Of a stretch of 59,669 bases of DNA, positions 1 through 795 are shown in pieces. This DNA comes from a candidate division WOR-3 bacterium (GTDB taxonomy: Bacteria; Hydrothermota; Tepidihabitantia; Tepidihabitantales; Tepidihabitantaceae). Below the pieces are notes generated by a model, which saw nothing but the letters and a program-made list of their open reading frames with translations, did not search any database and was not told the DNA's origin. Position 1 is the first letter of the stretch. The number at the start of each line of letters is the position of its first letter. Made by a program: the position numbers and the translations under genes. The stretch lies in assembly GCA_965649205.1 (NCBI GenBank), contig CBFGJV010000017.1, positions 1-59,669 on the forward strand, given 5' to 3'.

Positions 1-204
1 TTCAAACCTGGCTTCAACCCCGCACTCACCACACCCCTGAAACCAGAACTGAACCCCCTAATCAAACCTCTCTTCACACTCCACCTGTACTTCCCTTTCT
101 ATCCTCCCCTCACACCACAACTTAGCCACATACTCGCCCCAGAACTGTTCCCCCAGACCTTCCCCACCTTCTCCCCCTGGGTCACTGGGGGAGTCACTCC
201 CCCC
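1..204. repeat. Degenerate 12-bp-period array, 17 units, C-rich/G-poor on +, truncated by the window edge
   Basis: 12-mers from base 1 read ttcaaacctggc/ttcaaccccgca/ctcaccacaccc/ctgaaaccagaa/ctgaacccccta/atcaaacctctc... T at unit position 2 in 16 of 17 units, CC at positions 7-8 in 12 of 17, only 12 G in bases 1-177. Frame +1 is open to TGA at 238-240 and reads hydrophobic-x-Pro-x tetrapeptides (FKPG FNPA LTTP LKPE LNPL IKPL). Confidence 0.75.
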
Positions 205-423
205 TCAATTTCCGTGCCAAACCCCTGTGTCCCACCCTGATTCCATCTCCCAGCCGAACCATATTCCACCTTACTCTCGACCCGTCTCCACATCATCTTT
301 ACGAATCATACCTCCAAGAGCATATAACATATCTGAGAACACAACTAGGAAATGTCCAATGTCCCTGTCCTGACTCACCTGTAAAACCAGGTCTGCCAGT
401 ACAGAGAAGAAAGGAGTGAAACC

Positions 424-795
424 ATGAAAGACGCTACTCGCCGCATCTCCCGCTGGAGGGCAAAGTTCACGCCCGCCAGACAGGCAGAAACTCTGGCCGT
501 CATATACGAGGACATGGCCCGACGCTACGCCGCAGTCACAGTAGAACTGTGCTCTATGGAAACGCAAGTGAAACAGGTGCTAGACCAGGCCAAAGTGCAT
601 ACTAACTGGTACGTTTCATATCTGGACTTCGCGCGACAACTATTCCGGCTTTCGCGGCAGCAGGAAATATCCGGCAACAGTCTGGCGCTTGCGGCTCAGG
701 TACTCTTAGAGCGTTGGGCGGCCCGCGGTCTGAACCCGGATGTGCTCACCACCATTCGCCGCGAGGTATTCAATATCGGTCCGCCCGGACCGTAG
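424..795 (+). CDS. Small helical protein resembling the rudivirus (SIRV2-type, Adnaviria) major capsid protein
   Basis: SD AAGGAG at 411-416, ATG at 424. Collinear motifs RRISRWRAKF, QVKQVLDQAKV, YLDFARQL, SGNSLA, LNPDVLTTI match my recollection of SIRV2 MCP (QRYAKWQAKF, NVSAVLTQYGI, YQGFGLKV, SGPALV, ANPQVLDAV). The CDS is well supported; the family call is from memory, not a search. Confidence 0.7.
   Translation: MKDATRRISRWRAKFTPARQAETLAVIYEDMARRYAAVTVELCSMETQVKQVLDQAKVHTNWYVSYLDFARQLFRLSRQQEISGNSLALAAQVLLERWAARGLNPDVLTTIRREVFNIGPPGP

Follow-up and report, generated by a model that had tools for sequence, protein, structure and literature searches.

The first 204 nucleotides of the window (the whole 59,669-nt stretch analyzed here, which opens contig C17 of the WOR-3 genome G000; 2.15 Mb, 97.95% complete) form a non-coding array of 12-nt units upstream of a gene for a predicted Adnaviria-type capsid-fold protein. 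Given that a viral capsid dimer wraps exactly 12 bp and that the array has a period of 12, the array is likely a loading track. We favor, with some confidence, the reading that it is a phased track on which a DNA-wrapping filament derived from a capsid would form and act locally, much like chromatin. This reading draws on the period, the strict register, the non-coding status and two-fold symmetry of the array, its linkage to one gene subfamily, and the predicted fold of the protein.

Positions 1-204 consist of 17 back-to-back 12-nt units without a single indel. Unit position 2 is T in 16 of the 17 units and position 4 is A in 11, while positions 7 and 8 are C in 14 and 13 units, respectively. 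The lag-12 identity is 0.484, compared to 0.317 ± 0.032 for base shuffles and 0.324 ± 0.031 for codon shuffles, a value that none of 5000 shuffles match; identity at lags 24 and 36 is 0.42 and 0.48. In these respects, the gap-free units of the original prediction are borne out, as are the depletion of G on the + strand (21/204, or 10%, compared to 22% in the window) and an end point roughly 220 bp before the gene, with 219 bp separating the end of the array from the ATG at 424. The claim that the register persists past the TGA at 238-240 fares less well: lag-12 identity across 204-420 is 0.35 versus 0.27 (p about 0.003), but per-unit scores beyond 204 drop to 1.9 bits or less, where 1-8 bits are typical inside the array, leaving a marginal signal overall. 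Bases 205-220 are also common to three other elements in G000 and to a same-genus cassette. With a matrix trained on other genomes, the window array is the top hit in a periodicity scan (44.1 compared to a null maximum of 29.2); it is absent from the output of Tandem Repeats Finder. A genome-wide periodicity scan used alone was rejected, as it gave too many false positives (147 hits compared to 95 and 73 in shuffles). A scan of positions 1-900 for consensus promoters and terminators returned no sites; the putative promoter in Table 1 has a counterpart, TATAAT, at the same distance in a same-genus genome.

Table 1. Features at the start of the window, with the evidence behind each where one is given.
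Feature	Position	Strand	Basis
Array body: 15 degenerate units, T fixed at unit position 2; the contig start cuts the 5' side	1..180	+	periodicity
Two best-conserved terminal units with a 17-bp dyad, GGGGGAGTCACTCCCCC (187-203); probable nucleation end	181..204	+	
Weak fading of the 12-bp register	205..264	+	lag-12 identity, unit scores
Putative promoter of the capsid-like gene, -10-like TATAAC at 323-328	298..328	+	
Ribosome-binding site AAGGAG	411..416	+	sequence; conserved before homologues
123-aa basic protein (pI 10.0), predicted SIRV2/AFV1 major-capsid-protein fold	424..795	+	

The array extends 5' beyond the start of contig C17, given that window bases 1-99 recur unchanged at the end of contig C23 and bases 1-119 are 98% like the start of contig C16. 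Following the repeat into upstream DNA, as had been proposed, yields about 4-5 more good units at the end of C23, for about 21-22 in all. Window positions 174-343 are 96% like the end of contig C36. Because C23 agrees with the window at base 98 and C16 differs, we infer the joins C23-C17 and C16-C36. A segment made up of array and promoter would then exist in two recent copies; the first precedes the capsid-like gene, and the second an unrelated gene for a C25 peptidase. The neighbors of 424-795 are pyruvate kinase and, by the inferred join, a tRNA-Arg gene on the C23 side that is oriented away from the 5' end of the array. At C14:18127-18600, C35:432-950, and C23:30931-31359 of G000, an array lies just 5' of a tRNA gene that faces away from the decayed end of the array. 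A separate 230-bp repeat (86-96% identity; C35:1-231, C47:1-230, C12:42583-42820, C44, and C9 of G000) sits 3' of two arrays and at other sites.

A gene for a hydrophobic-x-Pro-x tetrapeptide-repeat protein could also end in an array of this kind, which is the rival raised in the original prediction. Frame +1 is indeed open up to the TGA at 238-240, and true coding VTPQ and VTPP repeats occur in other genomes of the phylum. Reading back to the upstream stop, however, we found no ATG, GTG, or TTG in the repeat frame of either candidate 5' contig, C23 or C16. The pN/pS of the repeat frame is about 1 (1.11 for C16 against C23 and 0.83 against the array of the same-genus genome G001), whereas gene 424-795, with a pN/pS of 0.14, is under purifying selection. 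Stop codons in the repeat frame also show no depletion: 20 arrays (25 found, minus 8 that were duplicates, short, or frameshifted, plus 3 added from G000) hold 27 stops where 24.0 ± 4.0 are expected, including all three stop codons. The question of whether stops break the frame in homologous arrays is thus answered; they do so at the chance rate in 16 of the 20 arrays, and 15 of 21 elements in G000 hold them as well. The missing start codon, the stops, and the pN/pS lead us to reject this rival, whose probability is negligible; the array is non-coding and holds no gene. Gene callers take arrays for N-terminal tetrapeptide repeats of capsid-like proteins (P0186, P0192), and in P0186 such an array precedes a more distant homologue.

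In the pooled profile of 287 units, position 2 is T in 92%, position 3 is G or C, and position 4 is A in 63% and G in 26%, with weaker signals for T at position 6 and A at position 12. Positions 3 and 9 are axes of self-complementarity in the profile (r 0.77), with all other axes at 0.22 or less. When positions 2 and 4 are removed, r is 0.65 and this axis is the best in 87% of 200 bootstraps; in 21 elements selected by the end motif alone, r is 0.66. The two-fold axes of the profile are spaced 6 bp apart, which would be the expectation for a two-fold symmetric dimer stepping 12 bp. The symmetry is unequal, with T2 at 92% and A4 at 63%; this inequality counts against the loading-track reading and is not explained by a symmetric dimer on duplex DNA by itself.

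The register is strictly kept between copies. Eighteen arrays align over 144 columns with zero gaps, C16 and C23 show no differences at unit position 2, paralogous copies in G005 are separated by an indel of exactly 12 bp, or one unit, and near-perfect arrays are present in G021. No phase lock to the start codon or ribosome-binding site was found, a point against the loading-track reading; 5 of the 7 strongest loci had been suggestive, but the 31 loci spread over 10 of the 12 possible residues.

Could the array act instead as a single-stranded nucleic acid, either by loading Rho in the manner of a rut site or as a non-coding RNA, perhaps with a coat of the protein? The window copy is rich in C and poor in G, TC recurs every 12 nt, the asymmetry of T versus A/G resembles G-U wobble, a hairpin is possible at the end of the array, and the genome encodes Rho. 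Many homologous arrays are G-rich, however, so that the C-rich, G-poor composition of a rut site is true of the window copy and not of many of its homologues. The body of the array is no more foldable than shuffled sequence (z -0.7 and -0.8), a 4-bp terminal stem is all that the alignment supports, Rfam gave no match, and many elements have a divergent neighbor and no same-strand upstream gene. Rho is not known to need an indel-free register, which further counts against this explanation, and we regard it as very unlikely.

The product of 424-795 is predicted to have an Adnaviria-type capsid fold, and structural comparison of the model upholds its earlier description as capsid-like. The AlphaFold model has a pLDDT of 93, and in a structural search of 48,161 chains, ranks 1-7 were all Adnaviria capsid proteins with Z scores of 13.8 to 7.5. 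SSRV1 gave a Z of 13.8 (rmsd 4.5, 121 aligned), although a Z near 13 calls for caution in a helical protein. The six best Foldseek rows are chains of SIRV2, SSRV1, and AFV1, none at an E of 0.001 or better, the best being SIRV2 (E 2.2e-3, TM 0.70). In the model, an N-terminal helical arm and a C-terminal four-helix bundle superpose on solved capsid proteins. By sequence, the capsid family PF12193 scores 21.5 bits against the window protein (E 2.7e-4), below its cut-off of 25.2, which 3 of 20 scanned relatives exceed. A profile search placed four capsid structures first, with AFV1, SSRV1, and SIRV2 chains at E 0.008-0.022, and the N-terminal RRISRW-KF segment aligns with the N-terminus of SIRV2 and SSRV1. 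The nearest named homologue (83%) comes from a candidate division WOR-3 bacterium, and 1017 representatives at 50% identity match the family profile. In PHROGs, 27 of 58 members match nothing more than a weak, unnamed family, and no usable match came from ESM Atlas.

The period of the array equals the DNA footprint of these viral proteins. In SFV1, each capsid dimer takes up 12 bp of DNA, and the axis of the SIRV2 dimer coincides with a DNA pseudo-dyad (PMC6105669); published accounts of AFV1, SIRV, and PFV2 likewise give 12 bp per dimer. The figure of one SIRV2 dimer per 12 bp, on which the original prediction drew, is confirmed and holds for AFV1, SFV1, and PFV2 as well.

Homologues are found in 41 of 41 relatives, with 2-33 matches per genome. 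Across 151 genomes of the phylum, the capsid-fold family occurs in 26, comprising all 26 of the window's order and none of the 125 others. G000 has 14 capsid-fold ORFs, some of them in operons of divergent paralogues and two with a two-domain layout. Such operons, with three to four paralogues each, lie at C13:1-1301 and C43:5163-6224 of G000 and at L117, L118, and L115, with the canonical copy last in several cases; the two-domain single-chain forms are on C3 and C42. At C12:69210-70862, a canonical capsid-like gene lies 3' of a small ORF and of an ORF that by eye looks ECF-sigma-like, and adjoins a cas3-like gene. Three further proteins (P0238, P0257, and P0262) join an N-terminal capsid-fold domain to a long C-terminal domain, resembling accessory forms reported from archaeal adnaviruses.

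To relate arrays to genes, we scored the DNA upstream of 63 capsid-like loci, leaving out one where it was too short, and called an array above 15 bits. Within the window's subfamily, 30 of 40 genes have an array on their 5' side (23 of 33 when the training set is left out), compared to 1 of the 22 more distant paralogues; given that kin among the loci are not independent, we attach no p-value to this difference. The co-occurrence of arrays with homologues of 424-795, which had been put forward as a check, is therefore seen within the subfamily. Several observations here count against the loading-track reading. Ten of the 40 subfamily genes fall under the threshold, several of these loci being periodic by a matrix-free measure, and of 26 capsid-like loci from families f2-f5, only 4 have an array within about 1.5 kb. 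The f2-f5 arrays are AT-rich with the same T-n-A core and are located either 3' of a two-gene operon or on the other strand; AT-rich T-n-A arrays flank capsid-like genes in two of these families, f3 and f5. The array model trained on family f1 likewise found none in 8 genomes of f2-f5, with only 26 candidates scored per genome.

Some capsid-fold domains are themselves joined to a helix-turn-helix, which bears on the possibility that a conventional helix-turn-helix protein, XRE or other, uses the array as a set of operators and that the 12-bp match to capsids arose by chance. Dyad units are typical of operators, and XRE-HTH genes follow arrays in G005 and elsewhere. Short coding GTNAC-N7 repeats also occur in Fic-like HTH genes of genomes that lack the capsid fold. 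Yet these XRE proteins carry the capsid fold themselves: they have two capsid-fold domains (hhalign profile 94% and 84%), and residues 280-372 of the fusion reach Z 11.5 to AFV1 and SSRV1. The fusions are found in 18 of 41 genomes, all of family f1, whereas arrays occur in f3 and f5 too; arrays above shuffles precede 9 of 22 fusion genes. Runs of 20-30 contiguous units with about 1.5 bits at one position would also fit a cooperative filament better than they would a repressor site. We consider a conventional operator quite unlikely.

One XRE-capsid-fold regulator (L089:2008-3410, on C1 of G000) lies beside a cas12b locus and is split into two overlapping ORFs; its relatives are single proteins of 330-400 aa. 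The short coding VTPQ repeats mentioned above sit in genes with HATPase_c_4 and a Fic-like C-terminal HTH (L269:480-543, L270:437-490, and L271:472-528) in other families of the phylum. At the DNA level, their units hardly differ from one another and follow the GTNAC-N7 layout seen at the ends of the arrays; these repeats are possibly self-operators inside the gene. When the array model was run on 101 genomes outside the order, all 4 hits were coding VTPQ/VTPP repeats, in a test that is underpowered.

The arrays are not restricted to capsid-like genes. G000 holds about 21 dyad-ended elements that are dispersed and mostly away from these genes, with only 2 directly preceding a canonical copy. 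In these elements, T at position 2 stays at about 50% for 20 units 5' of the end and then falls to background. Other elements lie between ordinary genes in divergent, tandem, and convergent settings; those at C8:6412 and C6:39863 are between convergent genes with no promoter to control, which argues against a reading in terms of promoter control. The original prediction of a two-part system of cis-array and coat protein thus stands in part. The arrays do co-occur with homologues, the fold is predicted, and the 12 bp agree, but a local packaging unit is not supported, given the dispersed elements, the 14 capsid-fold ORFs in the same genome, and the lack of any viral or mobility gene nearby.

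A different version of this idea is that array and gene form a minimal selfish or transfer module, in which packaging would originate at the array and the module or flanking DNA would be wrapped by the protein into filamentous particles, mobilized by factors supplied in trans. Copies share only about 1.1 kb (array, promoter, and gene, roughly -760 to +375 from the ATG) with no further gene, and the flanking genes vary among genera and within the genus, where the G001 site is empty in G000. This variable location, the 2-33 copies per genome, and recent duplications in G000 and G005 speak for such a module. Against it, we found no transposase, integrase, or Rep in the 52 flanking ORF pieces scanned (of 164 listed) or in shared flanking ORFs. 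The Y1 (HUH) transposase PF01797 was not found in G000, in a search whose control was positive in 6 of 14 genomes, and an alignment of 6 G005 copies, two of which can be read only in part, shows ragged ends and no terminal repeats. No relative was found in GenBank phages or, with two patterns that detect close relatives, in IMG/VR contigs. The presence of the family in 26/26 genomes of the order, together with the purifying selection on the gene, fits a kept cellular function, and a 90%-identical relative retains the gene beside pyruvate kinase. We therefore think a selfish module improbable. The pyruvate kinase gene (853-2454, - strand) converges on the capsid-like gene; used as a query against 5 related genomes, it had a match in just 1. 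No joints or indels were seen in the DNA contigs of relatives.

Is this then a provirus of the Adnaviria? The copies have no viral gene context, sharing only the 1.1-kb module, and the host is not archaeal, as the closest named homologues are WOR-3 bacteria and the family tracks one bacterial order. Given both results, the system is not a member of Adnaviria; by analogy, it would work like an adnavirus nucleocapsid without belonging to that realm. The realm is called archaea-specific and its capsid protein exclusive to it in two recent papers (PMC13700489, PMC10848233). The likeness to Adnaviria capsid proteins (SIRV2 3j9x, SSRV1 6wq0, AFV1 3fbz/5w7g, SFV1 6d5f, and PFV2 6v7b; PF12193) lies in the predicted fold, size, basic charge, and aligned N-terminal arm, and in an array period equal to their 12 bp per dimer. 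The single genes and tandem paralogue pairs seen here parallel homo- and heterodimeric Adnaviria capsids. Unlike Adnaviria, the system is chromosomal, multi-copy, and universal in one bacterial order; some copies are fused to XRE-HTH, and it is paired with a periodic DNA signal that we found described for no adnavirus. In rudivirus and lipothrixvirus genomes, 12-bp indels are common and mostly inside ORFs, as stated in a passage of one review (PMC4390879) that mentions no periodic array. The G005 copies show the same exact 12-bp steps in length, but here it is a whole intergenic track that is periodic.

Under the loading-track reading, the product of 424-795 would dimerize and cover 12 bp like its viral homologues, and these dimers could polymerize on the array into a short DNA-wrapping sleeve. 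Assembly would start at the perfect dyad end and run over 20-30 units (250-350 bp), with one weak T-n-purine contact per dimer, summed cooperatively, and with the DNA under the sleeve turned to A-form. Divergent paralogues, tandem two-domain forms, and XRE-HTH fusions may serve as nucleators or caps. The most likely job of the sleeve would be chromatin-like local control of adjacent promoters, including that of the gene itself, about 95 bp 3' of the array. Viral capsid proteins of the Adnaviria fold are not known to prefer particular DNA sequences, so that base reading must be assumed as a new property, which counts against the scheme.

Parts of this scheme have precedents. At H-NS nucleation sites and in ParB-parS, a strong site seeds cooperative coverage of flanking DNA, and in nucleosome positioning, weak periodic contacts set the phase with a period of about 10.5. 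The proposed track would share the strong seed and the weak periodic contacts with these systems; it differs in its unrelated fold, in a period of 12 without single-base indels rather than about 10.5, and in a protein class whose viral members turn DNA into the A-form. Like the elements here, REP/BIME elements with RAYT, and MITEs, are dispersed intergenic repeats that end in a GC-rich palindrome. Unlike them, these elements have a phased, degenerate track of 250-350 bp, with no Y1 transposase in the genome and no terminal inverted repeats seen.

A literature search, with subscription journals outside its coverage, returned no description of an array combined with a capsid-fold system and no paper joining "Adnaviria" and "WOR-3". 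The main text of a WOR-3 genomics paper (PMC12542636) makes no mention of capsid, virus, or repeat. Taken further, the system could be a domesticated adnavirus nucleocapsid that acts as programmable chromatin in one bacterial order, where a perfect dyad or XRE-fused single-chain dimers would seed A-form sleeves on dozens of 12-bp tracks; we put this forward tentatively, as a serious possibility that falls just short of even chances. If true, bacteria would have a conserved cellular family and a cis-element to match, the family being either a missing cellular relative of Adnaviria or a capsid turned chromatin, and the whole would represent a new kind of bacterial DNA-organizing system with an A-form sleeve. 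Where and how nucleocapsid assembly starts would become testable with a small protein and 300 bp of DNA, and so too would the reason for the 12-bp steps in these viral genomes.
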